Shown piece after piece: positions 26,571-38,972 of a DNA stretch of 42,537 nucleotides. How positions within the stretch are numbered: position 1 is the first letter of the stretch; the number at the start of each line of letters is the position of its first letter. This stretch comes from a virus. The stretch lies in the UHGV virus genome UHGV-0420230; one strand, given 5' to 3'. The position numbers and the translations under genes were made by a program. Under the pieces are notes generated by a model. It did no database searches, was not told the origin of the DNA, and saw only the letters and a program-made list of their open reading frames with translations.

Positions 26571-27166
26571 TGGTTGCCTCCTTTGCGAAGCTGGGCGGCG
26601 ATATCTTCGAGAACGCCATCAGAGAATGAGCGGTCAAAATCGCCTTCCGGCGCATTAGCCATAAACTCAGTAGAGGTAAGAATCATCCTGGCAATATCCG
26701 CGGCGTTCTTTGCAGTATCATCAATAAAACCAGCTTCCCAGGCTGCCAACATTCTGTTCGCCACAAAATAAGCGCCTTCCTTGCGTGCTTCAGTCTTCCC
26801 TTCAGCCAGAAAAGCATCGGTGGCTGGGGTTTTGATTTCGTTAAGCGCATCACTGAATCCACCACGCTCCATACCTAGCTCTGCTTCGTAATCGGCATCG
26901 AATGCAGCGTCTTTGCAGAACTTCTTCAGCTTTGCATTCTCCGCAGCCAGCGCTGAAAACTTCTCGTGTGCCAACTTAACAGCTGCATCAGCCTGCTTAA
27001 TTGACTCAATCGCTTTCTGGTGGTCTTCGTACAGAGCCGAAATCTTGGCCTCCGCTTCAGCAAATTTACGCACCAGATATTCAGCGTTTGTTTCGTTCAC
27101 TTTCAGATCTCGCGGTACACATTTCCCGCGAAGAAACCCTTCCATTTCGAAAACATTCATGCGCAT
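26567..27166 (-). CDS. hypothetical protein
   Basis: 199-aa ORF in the early operon, overlapping start and stop. Confidence 0.55.
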   Translation of the reverse strand: MRMNVFEMEGFLRGKCVPRDLKVNETNAEYLVRKFAEAEAKISALYEDHQKAIESIKQADAAVKLAHEKFSALAAENAKLKKFCKDAAFDADYEAELGMERGGFSDALNEIKTPATDAFLAEGKTEARKEGAYFVANRMLAAWEAGFIDDTAKNAADIARMILTSTEFMANAPEGDFDRSFSDGVLEDIAAQLRKGGNQ

Positions 27167-27693
27167 TTGCGTAACTCCGATAACTCGTTAAAACGTTCCA
27201 TAAACATCCCATAGGCATGGCCTGGCGACAGTGGAATAACTTTGAACATCTCTGTTGCCGGGATACCTTCCAGTACAGGCCAGAAAGAGCCATCATCAAG
27301 CCCGAGATCGCGGCGTTCGGTTGCCAGCATGATGAGATCGGCATATTTCACGGGCGTACTCATAACCGGGGGTAACCCGTATTTCTCACGGATTACGGCG
27401 TCTATTTTTTCTTCCATCCGTTTATAGTCAGGAAGAAGGCGTTTCAGTGGTGCGGGAATGTCCTGGCAATACGCTTCTGTTGCATCATGCATTAACGCTT
27501 CAAAAGCAAATTCCTGCGGCACCAGCTGGCTGCAAAGAACCGCATGTTGGGCGACGCTGTAGAAGTGCGAAAGATGACCGGCAAAGCGACAGATATTTGA
27601 AAGGGAAACCGCGATATCGTTAATATCGATGTCGTCTTTATTTATCCTGTCATAATAAAAATGCTTCCCGGAAAAAGTTTTAATAAATGACAT
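27157..27693 (-). CDS. HD-domain protein, YfdR-like
   Basis: 178 aa from MSFIKTF; H..H..D-type motifs; same size as E. coli prophage YfdR. Confidence 0.65.
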   Translation of the reverse strand: MSFIKTFSGKHFYYDRINKDDIDINDIAVSLSNICRFAGHLSHFYSVAQHAVLCSQLVPQEFAFEALMHDATEAYCQDIPAPLKRLLPDYKRMEEKIDAVIREKYGLPPVMSTPVKYADLIMLATERRDLGLDDGSFWPVLEGIPATEMFKVIPLSPGHAYGMFMERFNELSELRKCA

Positions 27694-27788
27694 TTTGTTC
27701 TCCACGTATATGCGCTGCACCGCGCTGAATTCTGCTAAAAAGAATCCCTCACCATCCGGTGATTATTGAGTTAATTACGTTTCCATAA

Positions 27789-27812
27789 ATGCCCCCGCAG
27801 GGGCATTTGCAG
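27789..27812 (-). other. perfect stem-loop between early-operon genes
   Basis: AAATGCCCC-CGCA-GGGGCATTT inverted repeat; no T-run. Confidence 0.4.
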
Positions 27813-27820
27813 TAATGAAA

Positions 27821-28645
27821 TCAGGCGGTGAAAGTACCAATAAAGGTTTCTACTTTGCTGTCTTTGAATTTCTCAACAAGCAGATCACGAAATTCGTTAG
27901 CCATTTCTTCCTGCACCGCTTCCAGCTGAATAATGCGCAGAACCAGTACAGGACGATCGCCAGTGATAATGCTGAGGCGTAATTTAAACGGACGTTCTTT
28001 CAGACCTTCAAACGGAACGCATTTAAATTCAAATGCCACTGGCATAATGTCTTTGGTCTTCGCTTCGACAGACTCCATCAGGGAGCGTTTGCCGCTGAAG
28101 TCATTGTCTTCAAAATCAGCGGTCTGGTTCGCTTCAATTGTGATTTTACGGATCGCCGCAGCCGCTTTGGTTGCCTGAATGGCGTCACCATTAGCATCAA
28201 AGCCCACAAGGTAGTCGGCCCAGTCTTCAATCCATTCTGCCAGTGACTTCTGGGAGTTACGCTCGCCATTAACAGACAACAGAGCAGAGAACGGTGCTGT
28301 CTTTTTCAGTTTGAGAGTGGCGGTGTTATCTGCGTGACCTGGTTCATCAATAGTACCCAGGTTAAGCACACTGACGGCTCGCATATTATCGGCATCGATA
28401 AAGCAGCGGGTGCCTTCATCTGCAAGATCTTTAGAATAACGGGTAAAGTCATCGATGCTGGCAGTGGAAAGTGAACCACGGAAACGGAAACGATTTAAAT
28501 TAAATTTTTCCAGATCATGAATGCGGAAATTATCAGGCAATGCCACAGCATCGGCACCAATCTTACTGATAATTTCATTAACACCCTGAGCAGAAATAAG
28601 GGCATGGATTTGATTAATTGCGGTTGCGTCTAAGTACTGAGACAT
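27821..28645 (-). CDS. DUF2303 protein, YfdQ-like
   Basis: 274 aa, same size as E. coli prophage YfdQ; GAGGA RBS. Confidence 0.65.
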
Positions 28646-28710
28646 AATAAGTCCTCACTATATTAAGATATTCAGTGATGAGATAAATAATCAGTTAATT
28701 AAGAACGATA

Positions 28711-29073
28711 TTAATGACCTGCTGCGCGGAGTTTTCCGTCAGGTTCACCGGCAAGAGTCAGTAATTGTCCCTGGTCTTCCTGCAGAATAGTCAGGCGACC
28801 ACCGCGATTGACATACATCGGCGTTTCGGTGGTGTCTTCTTCGGAAATTTTCCCGCGGTTAGTCGGGCGAACATATGAGAGTTTGTGTTTGATTTTCACA
28901 CGGTTCTCATCAAATGGTTCGATTTCCAGGTTGAGTGAGACCTTCCCTTTGGTTTTCGTGTTCATCACACCGGAAGCGACTTCACTGAGAACTGCGCCGA
29001 TTTTGGTTTCAAATACGCCGCCGTCCAGCTCCCCGATAAATGCCTGCACATCAGTACTGCGTTCGCTAGCCAT
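28711..29073 (-). CDS. hypothetical protein, YfdP-like
   Basis: GAGGAG sits 7 nt before the internal ATG (MASERS...), giving a 120-aa product; the track start at 29091 would place the RBS inside the coding sequence. Confidence 0.55.
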   Translation of the reverse strand: MASERSTDVQAFIGELDGGVFETKIGAVLSEVASGVMNTKTKGKVSLNLEIEPFDENRVKIKHKLSYVRPTNRGKISEEDTTETPMYVNRGGRLTILQEDQGQLLTLAGEPDGKLRAAGH

Positions 29074-29091
29074 TTTGCTGCTCCTCATCAT

Positions 29092-29510
29092 ATCGACCCT
29101 GCAAGGTCGGTTGGTTTATCCACAAAACAGAGAAGAACACCTGCGGTGGCTGCCGCCCGGATGGATTGGGTTATGAGCCCGTCGTCCGGTGATGCTCTTC
29201 TCTGTTTTGTAAAAAGGACGGTACCAGCCGGAAGCAATGGTACAAGCTGGTACCGCCAGGACTACACACAGCATAAAGTTGTGGTGCCGGGTGCCTCCCG
29301 GTGCCTGGCGAAGGTTGCACACCAGGCGGGTGGGTATCCACAGAAGGTCGACTGTCAGCCTCAACCTTAACCCGCGTGCGCTGAGCCGCATTCACCACAA
29401 CGCTAAGGATTCTCTCTGGTTGAAAATACTTAGCTGTTATGTGCCTGTCTTTTCACCACTTCAGGCTCGGTGGTATCCTTTTAAGTCCGTATACATAAAA
29501 GGAAAATCAA
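29092..29510. other. GC-rich structured non-coding region
   Basis: About 420 bp without an RBS-led ORF, short ORFs overlapping in several frames; 14-bp perfect inverted repeat 29122-29135 / 29187-29200 and 9-bp perfect inverted repeat 29220-29228 / 29246-29254. Confidence 0.4.
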
Positions 29511-29756
29511 ATGACTTTTGATGAAAAAGAACTTGATAATGCAATTAATAAAATCATCGTAACGTCGCTCTTTTCCTGTCTCAGCGACACTCAGCAGAAA
29601 CAGTTCTACGAATCGGCTTTCAACATGATCGAGCGTTGTTGTTTCTGCGATGCCGACGAGCTACCTGAAAAAATCAGGAAACAGTTGGCTGATGCTCTTC
29701 GAGTGCGACTTTCTGACCAATTTTCTGAAATGTACTCTCCGAATTTGGACAAATAG
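29511..29756 (+). CDS. hypothetical protein (plus-strand gene embedded in the leftward operon)
   Basis: 81 aa; AAGGA RBS 8 nt upstream; hairpin just after the stop. Confidence 0.45.
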   Translation: MTFDEKELDNAINKIIVTSLFSCLSDTQQKQFYESAFNMIERCCFCDADELPEKIRKQLADALRVRLSDQFSEMYSPNLDK

Positions 29757-29949
29757 AAAAAGGCCATTTCCATTCAGGGTCTGATGGAAATACTTCAGCC
29801 TGTTCCAAAGCACGGCGTAAAGAGAATACAACTCCAGCCATAATCTGATGTTTCCCATTGGTCCAGCTATCGCCGCTCTGATCTACAGGAGCGGCTATGT
29901 CGTATGACCAAACGACTTCACCACTATTGTTTAAAATCTGGACTTTCAT
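29674..29949 (-). pseudogene. duplicated 5' copy (first 59 codons) of the downstream zinc-finger gene with a different, possibly non-functional C-terminus
   Basis: Start, RBS and 59 codons lie within the 198-bp perfect repeat; the divergent C-terminal 32 codons overlap the convergent plus-strand ORF. Confidence 0.35.
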
Positions 29950-29970
29950 TTTGTTCTTTAACCTCCAGAT
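29773..29970. repeat. 198-bp perfect direct repeat, copy 1
   Basis: Identical to 30162-30359 (offset 389 bp), verified base by base. Confidence 0.9.
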
Positions 29971-30338
29971 TTCCGCGCATCTAAAGGCGCATTCTCATTT
30001 GGTGTGAACTGAATAGTTGTGCTGATATTGATTAATGCCTCGACACTCAAGACTACGCACTCAGAGCAGATAGCAACTTCATCTTTTCCGCCTTTGGCGA
30101 TGATTTTTTTTGCCTGCAGCTCGTTTGCGCCACAAAACGAGCATGTGAAATAACGGTTCATTTCAGGGTCTGATGGAAATACTTCAGCCTGTTCCAAAGC
30201 ACGGCGTAAAGAGAATACAACTCCAGCCATAATCTGATGTTTCCCATTGGTCCAGCTATCGCCGCTCTGATCTACAGGAGCGGCTATGTCGTATGACCAA
30301 ACGACTTCACCACTATTGTTTAAAATCTGGACTTTCAT
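29958..30338 (-). CDS. protein with C-terminal ClpX-type C4 zinc finger
   Basis: FTCSFCGANELQAKKIIAKGGKDEVAICSECV resembles the ClpX N-terminal zinc-binding domain; GGAGG RBS; first gene after pL. Confidence 0.65.
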   Translation of the reverse strand: MKVQILNNSGEVVWSYDIAAPVDQSGDSWTNGKHQIMAGVVFSLRRALEQAEVFPSDPEMNRYFTCSFCGANELQAKKIIAKGGKDEVAICSECVVLSVEALINISTTIQFTPNENAPLDARKSGG

Positions 30339-30359
30339 TTTGTTCTTTAACCTCCAGAT
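30162..30359. repeat. 198-bp perfect direct repeat, copy 2
   Basis: Identical to 29773-29970. Confidence 0.9.
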
Positions 30360-30456
30360 ACGGGCGTTTAATGGCCCCGCCGAACAGCTCTTTTCCGCAA
30401 TAGCTGCAATGTCTTTCGCGCATCAGCCTGCGCATTCACCACAACTCTAAAAACAA

Positions 30457-30509
30457 ATGTAGGATATCCAACATGTGAGTGTCAAGAGTTTATGTTGGTT
30501 ATCATACAT
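30457..30509 (-). promoter_or_regulatory. OL-type operator sites and leftward early promoter (pL-like)
   Basis: 18-bp palindromes ATGTAGGATATCCAACAT (30457-30474) and ATGTTGGTTATCATACAT (30492-30509); minus-strand TTGACA (plus 30480-30485) with 17-bp spacer. Confidence 0.55.
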
Positions 30510-30523
30510 AAAAAGATAGGCTC

Positions 30524-30551
30524 ATAAAAAAACCGGGGATACCCCGGTTTT
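30524..30551 (-). terminator. rho-independent terminator downstream of the repressor gene
   Basis: Hairpin AACCGGGG-ATA-CCCCGGTT with a 7-T run on the minus strand. Confidence 0.7.
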
Positions 30552-30571
30552 GCGATAGTGAGGAAGATGTG

Positions 30572-31225
30572 TCAAAAATCCATTATTACTTGTTTGACAA
30601 GACCAACTATTCTGCAGTTCTCACCGCATTCAATAGTTTTATAGTTAGGATTTAGTGGGACGAGATACCTGTTCGGCCAGTCCTCAACAAATTTTTTGAG
30701 TGTCGCTTCTTGCCCACCATTGATATGGGCAACAACGATTTTTCCGTTAATACACTCTGTATCAATAATATCTGGCTCTACGATAACGATAGAACCTTCT
30801 GGTATCGATGGTGAGCCGAGGGGATTGGTCATTGAATCACCACGGACCCGTAGTGCAAATGCCATTTCTGATACAAGGGCGGTAGTATAAACCCACTCTT
30901 CAGCATCTTCTTTCCTGACACCAGGCTCCGTCATTGTCCATGAACCCGCCTGAACCCACGAGATGAGGGGGACTTTTTTAACTGCGAATATTTCAGGTTT
31001 TAGATTTATCTTTGGTTCAGGCGAGCCTTTTCCGCTAACAAGCCACAGAGGATCGCATTTAAGTGCGTTGGCTAGGGCTTGAAGGTTGGCTCCATTTGGT
31101 TGGTAGTCGTCCTTTTCCCATCCAGTAACCGTGACACGGTTCACACCAGTCAAATCAGCCAGTGCTTGTTGTGTCAGGTTCAGTTCTTTTCGCCTTTGGC
31201 GAATACGATCACTCATGTTCATCAT
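30572..31225 (-). CDS. CI-like repressor (HTH plus S24 LexA-like peptidase domain)
   Basis: N-terminal HTH (LTQQALADLTGVNRVTVTGWE); C-terminal RGDSM...K motif of self-cleaving repressors; divergent from the Cro-like gene. Confidence 0.85.
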   Translation of the reverse strand: MMNMSDRIRQRRKELNLTQQALADLTGVNRVTVTGWEKDDYQPNGANLQALANALKCDPLWLVSGKGSPEPKINLKPEIFAVKKVPLISWVQAGSWTMTEPGVRKEDAEEWVYTTALVSEMAFALRVRGDSMTNPLGSPSIPEGSIVIVEPDIIDTECINGKIVVAHINGGQEATLKKFVEDWPNRYLVPLNPNYKTIECGENCRIVGLVKQVIMDF

Positions 31226-31288
31226 GTAGGCAATCCTACCACATGCCCATGTAGGATTCTTGACATTGGTATGTTGGATATCCTACAT
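31224..31288 (+). promoter_or_regulatory. OR-type tripartite operator with rightward early promoter (pR-like)
   Basis: Three related palindromes at 31224-31241, 31248-31265 and 31271-31288 (the last exactly the reverse complement of OL1), spaced 23-24 bp; TTGACA 31260-31265. Confidence 0.6.
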
Positions 31289-31320
31289 TTCTGCTTAACG
31301 TAATTTAACGGGAGACAGAA

Positions 31321-32497: not shown

Positions 32498-33317
32498 TTC
32501 TGATAATTCTGAGCGTTATATTGTTCTGGCAGCGGCAAAATCCGTTGCCGGGATTGGCGTCCCGGAATTTTCCACAGCGCACAACCGCGCTAAAGCGGTT
32601 TTTTTGTGTGCAATGCACGGCTACATCCAGATTATGGTGGGCCGGGCAGGGGCATCGAAAGATGCGCCGGTATCTGTGGAAGCCGGTTACGCCAACCCTG
32701 TTCGGTTCACCACCAGTCAGATTGGCGTCTGTGGTGGTGATTGTCCAAATCATTCCACAGGGGCTGTCGTGATGACTACTATCCCAACCCTCGCACAACC
32801 TGAAATTACGGTTATCAACGGCCTGGCCGTTACTTCTTCCCTAGCTATTGCCGACTACTTCGCCAAGCGTCATGACGATGTACTGAAAAAGATCCGCACG
32901 CTTGAATGCTCAGCATCATTCACTGCCCGCAATTTTTCGGTGAGTGATTACACTGATTGCACAGGTCGCAAACTTCCTTGCTACCAAATCACACGCGACG
33001 GTTTTGCGTTTCTTGCTATGGGTTTCACGGGTAAACGTGCTGCCCAGTTCAAAGAGGCATACATCAATGCCTTTAACCAGATGGAGAAACAGCTTTCAAA
33101 GCCCTCTGTACCGAGCGACGTTGCACATAACGCCAGCGTTCTCTGTTCCTACATTTCATCAATTCATCAGGTCTGGTTGCAGCAGCTTTATCCCATGCTG
33201 GAAAAAGCTGAATCACCGCTGGCTGTAAGTCTGTATGACCGAATTAACGATGCGGCATTTCTTGCCCGTCTTATTCATTCGTCGCTGAACTCTTCAGAGG
33301 TAAGGGGGCGCAAATGA
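32475..33317 (+). CDS. Rha-family phage regulatory protein
   Basis: ITVINGLAVTSSLAIADYFAKRHDDVLKKIRTL...ITRDGFAFLAMGFTGKRAAQFKEAYINAFNQME resembles the Rha domain. Confidence 0.7.
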   Translation: MSKPVMIDSDNSERYIVLAAAKSVAGIGVPEFSTAHNRAKAVFLCAMHGYIQIMVGRAGASKDAPVSVEAGYANPVRFTTSQIGVCGGDCPNHSTGAVVMTTIPTLAQPEITVINGLAVTSSLAIADYFAKRHDDVLKKIRTLECSASFTARNFSVSDYTDCTGRKLPCYQITRDGFAFLAMGFTGKRAAQFKEAYINAFNQMEKQLSKPSVPSDVAHNASVLCSYISSIHQVWLQQLYPMLEKAESPLAVSLYDRINDAAFLARLIHSSLNSSEVRGRK

Positions 33318-37210: not shown

Positions 37211-38206
37211 GTGACCGTGAGAGCACTACTGACCCCTGAAATAGCCCCGCGTATGGGGATTGTATTGTTCAGACCAGGTTCAGAGCTGATGCCCCTGTTT
37301 ATGCAGGGGCGTGTCCTGCTGGAGCCTGAGCCGGAACGTTATTCATCTTTCGCCAGTGGTGCCGTTCCGGCGGCATCACAACCGCTGGCGGATGATCCTG
37401 CCGTTAGGGCCGTGTTCCGCAATGAGGCAGTGATCCGTCGTGCTGGTGGCGTGGAATGTCTTGAAAGCTGGTTACTTCGTGAAAAAGGCTGCCAGTGGCC
37501 TCATTCCGACTGGCACAGCGAGAACATGACCACAATGCGACACGCGCCGGGCGCGATCCGTCTGTGCTGGCACTGCGATAACCAGCTGCGCGATCAGTTC
37601 ACGGAACGGCTGGAATCAATGGCAACGGATAACTGTGCCCGCTGGGTGTTGTCTGTAGTCCGTCTGGATCTCGGTTTTGATGATAACCATGCCGTGACAA
37701 TGCCGGAACTGTGCTGGTGGCTGATTCGTAATGACCTGGCGGATGCCTTACCGGAAAGTGCAGCCCGTAAGGCACTGAGATTACCGAAGCCTGTTGTGCC
37801 GTCTGTCACCCGGGAAAGTGACCTTGTGCCTTCGGTTCCTGCCACCAGCATCATCCAGGATAAGGCGAAAAAGGTGCTGGCGCTGAAAGTGGATCCGGAG
37901 TCGCCGGAGTCTTTTATGTTACGCCCAAAACGCCGCCGCTGGGTTAATGAAAAGTACACGCGCTGGGTTAAGACACAGCCGTGTGCATGTTGTGGAAAGC
38001 CTGCTGATGATCCCCACCACCTGATAGGCCACGGTCAGGGTGGAATGGGTACAAAAGCGCATGACCTCTTTGTGTTGCCTTTGTGCAGAAAGCATCACGA
38101 CGAGCTGCATGCGGATACCGTGGCATTTGAAGAGAAGTATGGCTCTCAGCTGGAGCTGATATTTCGTTTTATCGATCGTGCGCTGGCAATTGGCGTATTG
38201 GCGTAA
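37211..38206 (+). CDS. DUF968-domain protein (HNH-like C-terminus)
   Basis: C-terminal ...QPCACCGKPADDPHHLIGHGQGGMGTKAHDLFVLPLCRKHHDELH; GTG start. Confidence 0.6.
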   Translation: MTVRALLTPEIAPRMGIVLFRPGSELMPLFMQGRVLLEPEPERYSSFASGAVPAASQPLADDPAVRAVFRNEAVIRRAGGVECLESWLLREKGCQWPHSDWHSENMTTMRHAPGAIRLCWHCDNQLRDQFTERLESMATDNCARWVLSVVRLDLGFDDNHAVTMPELCWWLIRNDLADALPESAARKALRLPKPVVPSVTRESDLVPSVPATSIIQDKAKKVLALKVDPESPESFMLRPKRRRWVNEKYTRWVKTQPCACCGKPADDPHHLIGHGQGGMGTKAHDLFVLPLCRKHHDELHADTVAFEEKYGSQLELIFRFIDRALAIGVLA

Positions 38207-38219
38207 GTGGAGAACGAGC

Positions 38220-38972
38220 ATGAACCTTGAAGCCTTACCAAAATATTACTCCCCAAAATCTCCAAAATTGAGCGATGACGCACCGGCGACAGGCTCAGGT
38301 GGTTTAACGATTACGGATGTGATGGCTGCGCAGGGGATGGTGCAGTCGAAAGCACCGCTTGGGTTTGCCTTATTCCTGGCAAAAGTTGGTGTTCAGGATC
38401 CTCAATTTGCGATTGAAGGTCTGCTCAATTACGCGATGGCACTGGATAACCCGACATTGAACAAATTGAGTGAAGAAACCCGGTTACAGATCATCCCTTA
38501 CCTTGTGAATTTTGCCTTTGCTGATTATTCCAGGTCTGCGGCAAGTAAGGCTCGCTGTGAGCATTGTGCTGGTACTGGATTTCATAATGTATTGCGCGAA
38601 GTGGTGAAACACTCCAGAAGCGGGGAATCTGTTATCAAGGAAGAGTGGGTGAAGGAACTATGTCAGCATTGTCATGGTAAGGGAGAAGTCAGCACAGCGT
38701 GCAGAGGGTGTAAGGGTAAAGGTATTGTCCTGGATGAAAAAAGGACCCGGCTTCATGGCACGCCTGTTTATAAGATTTGTGGGCGTTGCAATGGAAACCG
38801 GTTTAGCCGTTTACCAACCACACTGGCGCGGCATCATGTCCAGAAGCTGGTACCAGACCTGACGGATTATCAGTGGTACAAAGGATATGCAGATGTCATT
38901 GATAAACTGGTTACAAAGTGCTGGCAGGAAGAAGCATATGCAGAGATACAATTGAGAAAGGTGACAAGATAA
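38220..38972 (+). CDS. Q-like late antiterminator
   Basis: Zinc-binding CEHCAGTG...CQHCHGKGE...CRGCKGKG; immediately upstream of a late promoter plus terminator; ATG 38220 preferred over the GTG at 38178. Confidence 0.7.
   Translation: MNLEALPKYYSPKSPKLSDDAPATGSGGLTITDVMAAQGMVQSKAPLGFALFLAKVGVQDPQFAIEGLLNYAMALDNPTLNKLSEETRLQIIPYLVNFAFADYSRSAASKARCEHCAGTGFHNVLREVVKHSRSGESVIKEEWVKELCQHCHGKGEVSTACRGCKGKGIVLDEKRTRLHGTPVYKICGRCNGNRFSRLPTTLARHHVQKLVPDLTDYQWYKGYADVIDKLVTKCWQEEAYAEIQLRKVTR

Follow-up and report, generated by a model that had tools for sequence, protein, structure and literature searches.

Which function is served by a block of about 420 bp that lies between two phage genes, carries long inverted repeats and contains no convincing open reading frame (ORF)? 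Such a block is found in the virus genome UHGV-0420230, of which a stretch of 42,537 nucleotides (nt), here called the window, was analyzed. An initial annotation, made from the letters alone, had proposed two readings of the block, as a structured RNA of the early-left operon or as the remnant of a decayed gene. The first proposal is borne out by homology to the small RNA STnc100, by covariation and by a conserved three-way-junction RNA further downstream: the minus strand of the block very probably encodes a genuine structured RNA, non-coding and belonging to the STnc100 superfamily. Downstream of its folded domain, this RNA contains a linker that is partly identical to the host small RNA RprA. 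With Shigella phage SfV the region shares 98% identity; the window is an SfV-like lambdoid prophage, and the block is the non-coding middle of its early-left (PL) operon. The order of the repressor gene, its terminator and a PL-like promoter identifies the minus strand as the sense strand of this operon, and this is the functional strand of the block.

Both inverted repeats that had drawn attention to the block are present, with dimensions that had to be corrected. The longer one, described as a perfect 14-bp repeat enclosing 51 nt (29122-29200), indeed has 14 perfect pairs; its arms lie at 29122-29135 and 29197-29210, so the right arm ends at 29210 and the spacer measures 61 nt. Counting the pair 29136/29196 the repeat is perfect over 15 bp, and it stretches to arms of 25 nt at 84% complementarity. 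The shorter one, given as 9 bp at 29220-29254, comprises 10 perfect pairs (29219-29228 with 29246-29255, spacer 17 nt) and forms 13 pairs in the minus-strand RNA. In 300 shuffled versions of the block the longest perfect inverted repeat had a mean of 7.2 bp and a maximum of 12; none reached 14. The short repeat is the terminator of the minus-strand RNA, and the long one forms the basal stem of another conserved RNA, called module 2 below. Folding of the minus-strand RNA from 29435 to 29092 (344 nt) yielded -150.7 kcal/mol (z = -6.65), with near-coincident minimum-energy and centroid structures, compared with z = -4.04 for the plus strand of the same region. The statement that the block is conspicuously richer in guanine and cytosine (GC) than its flanks holds for the immediate neighborhood (0.527 for the block and 0.572 for its core, 29116-29405, versus 0.451 for 27000-31300), but the block lies little above the mean of the whole window (0.51).

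A five-helix pseudoknotted domain of the STnc100 type

An Rfam search and a covariance analysis, which the initial annotation had named as checks, both gave a signal. In a permissive scan the STnc100 family (RF02076; gathering score 47 bits) matched the minus strand over the full length of the model (positions 1-206) with 42.4 bits and an E-value of 9.8e-8, and covariation was found in helices P1, P2 and P3, in a pseudoknot and in module 2. The 22-nt core of the family, CACCGGGAGGCACCCGGCACCA, is present without a mismatch at 29303-29282; it occurs once in the window and never in shuffled sequences. The 5' GGUGAAU of the family is found within GUGGUGAAU at 29398-29390. We detected the 22-nt core in at least 120 viral contigs, which form 36 clusters at 75% identity. 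The coordinates of the domain and of all other features are listed in Table 1.

Table 1. Features of the block and of its surroundings in the window.
Feature	Position	Strand	Remarks
Block	29092-29510		between the yfdP homologue and the 81-aa ORF (29511-29756, +)
P0 hairpin	29402-29434	-	predicted fold; adjoins the 5' side of the domain, at the promoter position of stand-alone STnc100 genes
STnc100-type five-helix pseudoknotted domain	29278-29401	-	124 nt; Rfam, core, covariation
Helix P1, closing stem	29401-29393 with 29286-29278	-	9 bp, GUUGUGGUG/CACCACAAC
Helix P2	29389-29374	-	
Helix P3	29373-29371 with 29330-29328	-	GGG/CCC
Helix P5	29327-29303	-	
Helix P6	29301-29287	-	CCGGG-AGGCA-CCCGG
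Pseudoknot	29368-29362 with 29317-29311	-	AAGGUUG/CAACCUU, the latter in the P5 loop
Single-stranded linker, candidate seed	29258-29277	-	20 nt, UUUAUGCUGUGUGUAGUCCU; 29273-29260 identical to RprA nt 62-75
Intrinsic terminator	29211-29257	-	13-bp stem (29257-29217, two G-U pairs), 15-nt loop, C and five U; the short inverted repeat
Module 2, three-way junction	29119-29213	-	95 nt; 23-bp basal stem (the long inverted repeat), hairpin A, variable hairpin B; z = -8.13 when folded alone
Apical motif of hairpin A	29183-29163	-	GACGGGCUCAUAACCCAAUCC; conserved, once in the window
Small hairpin	29092-29111	-	just upstream of the yfdP ribosome-binding site; kept in mEp460 and many module 2 loci
yfdP homologue	28711-29073	-	first gene past the RNA block; matches PHROG 204 (function unassigned)
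Second copy of the domain start	30431-30450	-	GUUGUGGUGAAUGCG; very start of the PL transcript; 20-nt direct repeat, 95% identity
PL-like promoter	30485-30456	-	TTGACA-18-TACATT, 10/12 matches; just past the repressor gene and its terminator
LexA-like repressor gene	30572-31225	-	followed by its terminator and the PL-like promoter

STnc100 is known as a multi-copy prophage small RNA; strain EDL933 of enterohaemorrhagic Escherichia coli carries 11 copies, one of which was confirmed as a discrete RNA on Northern blots (PMC5331693). It overlaps the Hfq-bound EcOnc27 downstream of stx2B (PMC12711010) and is related to the likewise Hfq-bound PasD (bioRxiv 10.64898/2026.05.13.724894). An established mechanism for STnc100 was not found in the literature searched.

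For the covariation analysis of the domain, 29 diverse domains were aligned with MAFFT, so that the alignment was not fitted to any structure. The cells of P1, P2, P3 and P6 were paired in 96.6% of cases, compared with 87.1% in shuffles (0 of 500 reached the observed value) and 36-51% for slid partners. Changes on both sides of a pair were found in 52 cells, where 14.9 were expected. Covariation thus supports P1, P2 and P3. Helix P6 is invariant in this set, which had been selected by the core; a compensatory variant with three changed pairs and the same loop, GGUGG-AGGCA-CCACC, is present in two loci found via module 2 (L221 and L166).

The loop of P5 pairs with a strand located about 23-27 nt past the 5' strand of P1. 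The offset of this pseudoknot is fixed, and at least 14 different pairing sequences occupy it, among them CCAGUC/GACUGG, GCUAGGC/GUCUAGC, AGACUGACAAA/UUUGUCAGUCU and, in phiES15, AAGGCUG/CAGCCUU, next to the version of the window. Across the family, cognate strands form 6.4 bp on average and non-cognate strands 4.8 bp, a difference that 0 of 20000 permutations reached. In the window the AAGGUUG strand can instead pair locally with UCGACCUU, forming a competing hairpin. The pseudoknot is absent from the structure line of the Rfam STnc100 model as printed.

Canonical STnc100 copies score 73-79 bits (72.8 and 78.7 measured), the subfamily to which the window belongs 30-42 bits. In about half of the canonical copies GGUGAAU is preceded, at a distance of a few nt, by a TTGACA-17/18-TAAATT promoter, and in most of them a terminator follows the core after about 29 nt; in late regions these copies precede genes for a nanS-like esterase or a holin. 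A promoter-like site with at least 8 of 12 matches precedes 40 of 81 canonical copies but none of the 20 unique copies of the subtype to which the window domain belongs. Upstream of the window domain the best match is 6/12, and the pattern scan revealed no promoter belonging to this RNA. The P0 hairpin is kept in the subtype with different stem sequences: GCUAAG/CUUAGC in the window, GAUAAGAG/CUCUUAUC in ST64B, GAAGCGCAUU/AAUGCGCUUC in phiES15 and GAGCAUUC/GAAUGCUC in phage P1. Among the 20 unique copies, 17 have a terminator about 24 nt past the core, and a same-strand ORF follows in every case.

The subtype includes SfV, ST64B, 118970_sal3, phiES15, P1-like phages and others. Its position between a repressor gene with the presumed PL and the first early-left gene is kept in ST64B, sal3, phiES15 and L083. 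In phage P1 the domain is part of the ban operon and has tRNA genes on one side and tciA on the other (L004, ~2490-2625). The P1-like copies have no terminator and lie about 30 nt upstream of a start codon, which belongs to tciA in phage P1 and SJ46 (L129) and to another ORF in RCS47 (L005). The linker of phage P1, AACCUUAUU, can form 9 bp with the tciA ribosome-binding site, AAUGAGGUU, a potential pairing that may point to regulation in cis by the domain in that phage.

Two canonical STnc100 copies stand in tandem in one viral contig (L010, 1121-1300 and 1609-1794, with 72.8 and 78.7 bits), and several other contigs carry two 22-nt cores 270-920 nt apart. A further conserved hairpin, CCACCGAGCCUGANGUGGUGAAAAGACAGGC, lies upstream of P0 on the minus strand (29455-29474); it is common to L231, L139 and L234, which contain different cassettes, and the conserved RNA may extend to about 29474.

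The coding content of the block was analyzed as well. As had been noted initially, no ORF led by a ribosome-binding site is present; short ORFs overlap on both strands, and none has support. Those of 74-94 amino acids (aa) that overlap the block encode products rich in Arg, Gly and Cys that look out of frame, and a Pfam search with four block ORFs gave no match. No ORF is conserved at the homologous place in SfV, ST64B, phiES15 and P1, and none is annotated there in the records of SfV, ST64B and phiES15. Sequence variation in the block tracks base pairing, not codons. Nothing here supports the idea of a decayed gene remnant. In UPEC 26-1 the RefSeq record places a pseudogene, 'frameshifted hypothetical protein', on the RNA block (L002 3039-3349, corresponding to window ~29088-29398), and hypothetical proteins are annotated over it in several phage records. 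These annotations are probably spurious calls on structured RNA; 'hypothetical' and 'frameshifted' ORFs over the block should then be replaced by non-coding RNA features of opposite reading.

Linker, terminator and module 2

The linker between domain and terminator was compared with E. coli RprA, using rprA of K-12 from its RefSeq record as reference and a search space of 2.2 Mb. As a host small RNA, RprA has been linked to envelope stress, RpoS, biofilm and conjugation control. In the window 14 of 14 nt are identical to RprA nt 62-75, at the homologous position before the terminator, and the 3' seed of processed RprA, AAUUGCUGUGUGUAGUCUUU, is present. Relatives match over longer stretches: L221 is identical to RprA nt 60-85 (26/26, E 4e-8), including the first half of the terminator stem, L226 matches at 25/26, L196 at 23/24 and phiES15 at 19/19 positions, and many loci share 16-18 nt. 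The weight of the 14-nt match in the window therefore depends on its positional homology with these better-matching relatives. The linker plus terminator of L221 scores 41.2 bits with the Rfam RprA model (RF00034), for which the gathering score is 70.

The sequence GCUGUGUG(U/A)AGUC is near-invariant: the variable position is U in 11 of the 13 phage variants listed and A in the other two (ST64B and L196). This linker core stays the same while the cassettes upstream and at least four unrelated types of terminator downstream vary, which is the pattern expected of a selected seed. RprA nt ~33-58, which we take to be the rpoS-pairing region, are absent from the window, where CACAACUUUAU stands in place of AACAACGAAUU of RprA. 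The processed form of RprA, consisting of the last 47 nt, is active, and its single-stranded part is exactly the stretch that matches the linker; cleavage occurs just 5' of this stretch, and the narP-pairing region comprises nt 30-70 (PMC9262595).

Two further links to rprA were considered and rejected. The 5' half of RprA and the 5' part of STnc100 (GCAUGGAAAUCCCCUGAG versus GCAUGGUGAAUCCCCCUGAG) look strikingly alike, but the likeness is not significant, since 42 of 500 shuffles reach it. An origin of rprA-ydiL as a relic of the order small RNA, module 2, yfdP was dismissed as well: YdiL and YfdP are unrelated, and module 2 was not found after rprA. The literature searched contained nothing relevant that links RprA with STnc100 or phages or that contains the seed string, and no mention of the pseudoknot, of the RprA link or of module 2 was found.

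The terminator of the window aligns to the terminator stem of the STnc100 model, and in relatives its place is taken by terminators that are not homologous to it. Because its loop is longer than 8 nt, the window terminator escaped the pattern scan. A look by eye for antiterminator pairing between domain and terminator, as in a riboswitch, gave nothing convincing. In the SfV record a 'putative rho-independent terminator' (L001 3442-3474) corresponds to an A+T-rich hairpin without a U tract near window 29476-29503, and the much stronger terminator at 29257-29211 is unannotated there.

Downstream of the terminator, the motif of module 2 was found in at least 120 viral contigs, including many lambdoid phages, which reduce to 73 unique variants. 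Its consensus contains 34 pairs, seven of which show compensatory changes; one pair of the basal stem is split into six G-C and six C-G, and the length of hairpin B varies. No Rfam family covering module 2 was found in the permissive scan, so that it represents a second widespread structured RNA that matches no Rfam family. Module 2 is always preceded by a terminator U tract, while what stands before the terminator varies. The gene after it is a yfdP homologue in 44 of 67 loci and otherwise RdgC-like, yfdR-like or another one. With its basal stem of 23 bp, nearly perfect and placed where the downstream message begins, module 2 may be an RNase III-type element for processing or stabilisation.

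Loci found via module 2 share a layout that consists of P0, GUUGUGG, a variable cassette, CCACAAC, the conserved linker, the terminator and module 2. The slot is filled by an STnc100-like domain in the window, by a different fold in mEp460 and by several other forms elsewhere. In L207 the slot scores as a tRNA (43.9 bits, gathering score 29) with an insert of 64 nt, and in L227 it reaches 28.7 bits. ARAGORN made no call in either cassette and found 0 genes for tRNA or tmRNA in the window, and the tRNA model (RF00005) did not match the window domain at E-values up to 10. The 5' half of the mEp460 cassette also makes up the first 100 nt of the PL transcript of the window.

Operon setting and neighboring features

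From the PL-like promoter, the hexamers of which recur at PR on the plus strand (31260-31289), the order is a partly duplicated gene for a ClpX-type zinc-finger protein, the oppositely oriented orf81, the block, yfdP, yfdQ and yfdR, and finally xis and int. The pattern scan found no promoter-like site on the minus strand between PL and yfdP. The product of the first PL gene, the ClpX-type zinc-finger protein, has no assigned function. A Q-like antiterminator is encoded at 38178-38972, and no N homologue was recognisable in the window. At least part of a 511-bp query around the block is matched by 2865 of the 5426 complete E. coli genomes searched, more than half, and at least 80% of it by 1361, a quarter.

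On the minus strand, the region 30339-30450 starts with the 20-nt repeat of the domain start and then runs on as the 5' half of an mEp460-type cassette, which is intact in mEp460 itself. It breaks off at GCCCGU, where the ribosome-binding site of the zinc-finger gene begins. The sequence of this region suggests a joint created by recombination at the conserved closing stem.

The start of the first PL gene is present twice, owing to a direct repeat of 203 nt (29768-29970 and 30157-30359; 99% identity, spacing 389 nt). The repeat gives rise to an ORF of 91 aa (29674-29949) and one of 126 aa (29958-30338), in which the same 59 N-terminal residues are fused to the ClpX-type zinc finger; in UPEC 26-1 the 59-residue part and the zinc-finger part are separate genes. 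The ORF of 81 aa on the plus strand, opposite to the PL operon, has no Pfam match and is present only in relatives that match the full query (SfV, UPEC 26-1 and others); it is apparently an additional gene inserted in convergent orientation.

Elsewhere in the window isrK (78.7 bits, 32529-32605) adjoins the C4 antisense RNA (77.8 bits, 32630-32717), both on the plus strand. They are the sole Rfam matches of the window at gathering thresholds, and we take the pair to be the P4/P1-like RNA immunity module described for SfV. In prophage CPS-53 of K-12 (L003 7247-7604) yfdP keeps just its ribosome-binding site, and the whole block is replaced by GATTTTGACGGGTCAGA-type iterons; these replication-origin iterons lie upstream of yfdP, beside a remnant replication gene. 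The K-12 gene pawZ, which we had considered as a small RNA near yfdP, was rejected, as it is in fact a 15-bp tRNA-fragment pseudogene at the prophage end.

Possible function, alternatives and related systems

We moderately favor the interpretation that the locus encodes a composite small RNA of the Hfq type, in which P0 and an STnc100/PasD-type scaffold are joined to an RprA-like seed and a terminator that also gates the early-left genes. Upon induction, derepression of PL would yield transcripts that start about 1.2 kb upstream and stop at 29211-29216, with the small RNA at their 3' end. By analogy, seed, hairpin and U tail would form the usual 3' module of Hfq-binding and Hfq-dependent small RNAs. 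The scaffold may provide stability, direct cleavage at or near the 3' side of P1, or both. Such a cleavage would release an RNA of about 60-70 nt resembling processed RprA, which could pair with host or phage mRNAs through UGCUGUGUGUAGUC; the chances that the RNA acts in trans through this seed are about evenly balanced. The terminator would limit the entry of RNA polymerase into the early-left genes from yfdP to int, and read-through transcripts would begin their downstream part with module 2, serving as an RNase III-type processing site or stabilising stem.

Several observations speak against such a composite small RNA. The domain falls short of the STnc100 gathering score, and nothing in the block is found at gathering thresholds. 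Taken alone, the 14-nt RprA match of the window has an E-value of 0.64, and the RprA model did not match window 28900-29700 even at E-values up to 10. Complements of the seed occur inside the window at chance level. A loop of 15 nt and a tract of five U are not ideal for a terminator. The arrangement in P1-like phages is easier to reconcile with a role in cis than with a small RNA acting in trans. The 22-nt core is almost invariant across hosts; this points to a protein or RNA polymerase as partner and is left unexplained by a simple scaffold role. Finally, what we propose about transcript, processing and Hfq for this locus and its subtype is drawn by analogy.

As the main alternative, the domain might control transcription in cis, acting on the elongating polymerase like put of HK022 or recruiting a factor like nut; the terminator that follows and later ones would then be conditional, and the early-left operon would be subject to N-independent antitermination. 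Much of the setting agrees with this: N is not recognisable and the first PL gene encodes a ClpX-type zinc-finger protein, a strong terminator separates PL from yfdP-int with no promoter found after it and essential early-left genes beyond, and the invariant core is what a ligand of the host machinery would show. The P1-like domain within the ban operon, about 30 nt upstream of a start codon and without a terminator of its own, is also in line with it. In HK022 the put RNA, about 70 nt with two stems and a triplex, occurs in one copy each after PL and PR, with putL immediately following PL (PMC9378689); in the window, a copy of the first 15 nt of the domain likewise stands at the PL start. Nevertheless, we consider control of this kind unlikely, since no second copy of the domain was found downstream of PR, the architecture of put is different, and the conserved RprA-identical linker is given no role. 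Moreover, the promoter-like sites in about half of the canonical members, the terminators in most and the discrete Northern band of some indicate a terminated small RNA. Rather unlikely, too, is a processing cassette that derives from a decayed or remodelled tRNA-like gene and lacks a trans function. It would be cut by RNase P or RNase E and segment the PL transcript, and the RprA-like stretch would be a cleavage or Hfq-loading site. The same slot scores as a tRNA in L207 and L227, the helices are arranged as in a class II tRNA, the domain of phage P1 shares an operon with tRNA genes, and RprA is cleaved just 5' of the matching stretch. Against it, the window domain is not recognized as a tRNA at E-values up to 10 or by ARAGORN, the pseudoknot and the invariant AGGCA loop are foreign to tRNAs, and a 13-nt linker core that persists across at least four terminator types, with one U/A position varying, exceeds what a cleavage site usually needs.

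Two further explanations were weighed. It is very unlikely that the stems are mere terminators or insulators, possibly bidirectional, between mosaic modules, and that the other similarity is a recombination scar. In favor of this, the elements coincide precisely with mosaic joints, an A tract and a U tract flank the long hairpin on opposite sides, and terminators are annotated nearby in the SfV record. Against it, covariation extends to helices that are not part of a terminator and to the pseudoknot, terminators do not take the form of a three-way junction whose apical loop is invariant, and the 22-nt core is kept across genera. Decay of a protein-coding gene is extremely improbable. PGAP called a 'frameshifted hypothetical protein' in one RefSeq genome and ORFs overlap the block as described; their products lack Pfam matches and look out of frame, and the indels among homologues follow the helices while no ORF is conserved.

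We regard a wider scenario as possible but doubtful. The locus would be a modular small-RNA cassette of phages, in which a swappable scaffold of tRNA topology (STnc100-like, tRNA-like or other), enclosed by a stem of the acceptor type, determines how the early-left transcript is processed, so that on induction a mimic of processed RprA taps the RprA network of the host. RprA of the core genome would then have arisen from a cassette of this kind that lost the interior of its scaffold, or a phage would have captured the 3' half of RprA; the strictly conserved, pseudoknotted STnc100 scaffold would be a module recognized by a protein or an RNase and more than a 5' structure.

What is new here is an operon-embedded variant of a known prophage small-RNA family that is fused to an RprA-type seed and followed by a previously undescribed conserved RNA. 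Provided that the RNA is expressed and its seed functions, a prophage of the SfV/e14/KpLE1 type would produce a copy of the active end of RprA upon induction. This would be a concrete case of phage mimicry directed at a small RNA of the host core genome, or else of shared ancestry between such an RNA and a phage element. For the STnc100/PasD family, the results provide a testable architecture, with a pseudoknot, a tRNA-like topology and the succession of scaffold, variable seed and terminator.

Compared with STnc100 and PasD, the element of the window has the same 22-nt core, the same 5' GGUGAAU, the same order P1-P2-P3-P5-P6, the pseudoknot of the P5 loop with the strand past P3, a linker followed by a terminator, and a location in lambdoid prophages. 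It differs from canonical STnc100 in that G-C is swapped for C-G at three pairs of P2, the P0 hairpin takes the place of the promoter, and the linker is RprA-like, unlike the canonical ones. The subtype resides in the early-left or P1 ban operon, whereas canonical copies are located in the late region near stx, nanS or holin genes. With RprA it shares the single-stranded stretch before the terminator (14 nt identical in the window, 26 nt in L221) at the same position relative to the terminator hairpin. Unlike RprA, it resides in a prophage and not at the ydiK-ydiL locus of the core genome, it lacks the promoter context of RprA, and its terminator is a different hairpin. DicF, which is released from an operon transcript by processing, is likewise a small RNA embedded in a prophage operon; the terminator hairpin of the window, GGCGGUACCAG, resembles that of DicF, GGCGGUAUCAG, with scores below the gathering threshold of 48 bits (15.8 bits in the window and 25-30 bits in relatives), and the DicF seed is absent in the window.

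The put RNA of HK022 and the nutL-N-tL1 region of lambda have in common with the locus a structured early-left RNA by the first strong terminator; N is not recognisable, and a partial copy follows PL. Compared by architecture and not by sequence, the window differs from put in having one 124-nt five-helix pseudoknotted domain, in the left arm only. With class II tRNAs the parallel is one of topology only: P1 would correspond to the acceptor, P2 to the D arm, P3 to the anticodon arm, P5 to the variable arm and P6 to the T arm, while the window domain has a 5-nt P6 loop and a pseudoknot and shows no signatures of a D-loop or T-loop. Phage tRNAs come closer in location, as the closing stem GUUGUGG/CCACAAC is the acceptor stem of the tRNA-scoring cassettes L207 and L227 at the same locus, and phage P1 carries the domain among its tRNA genes.

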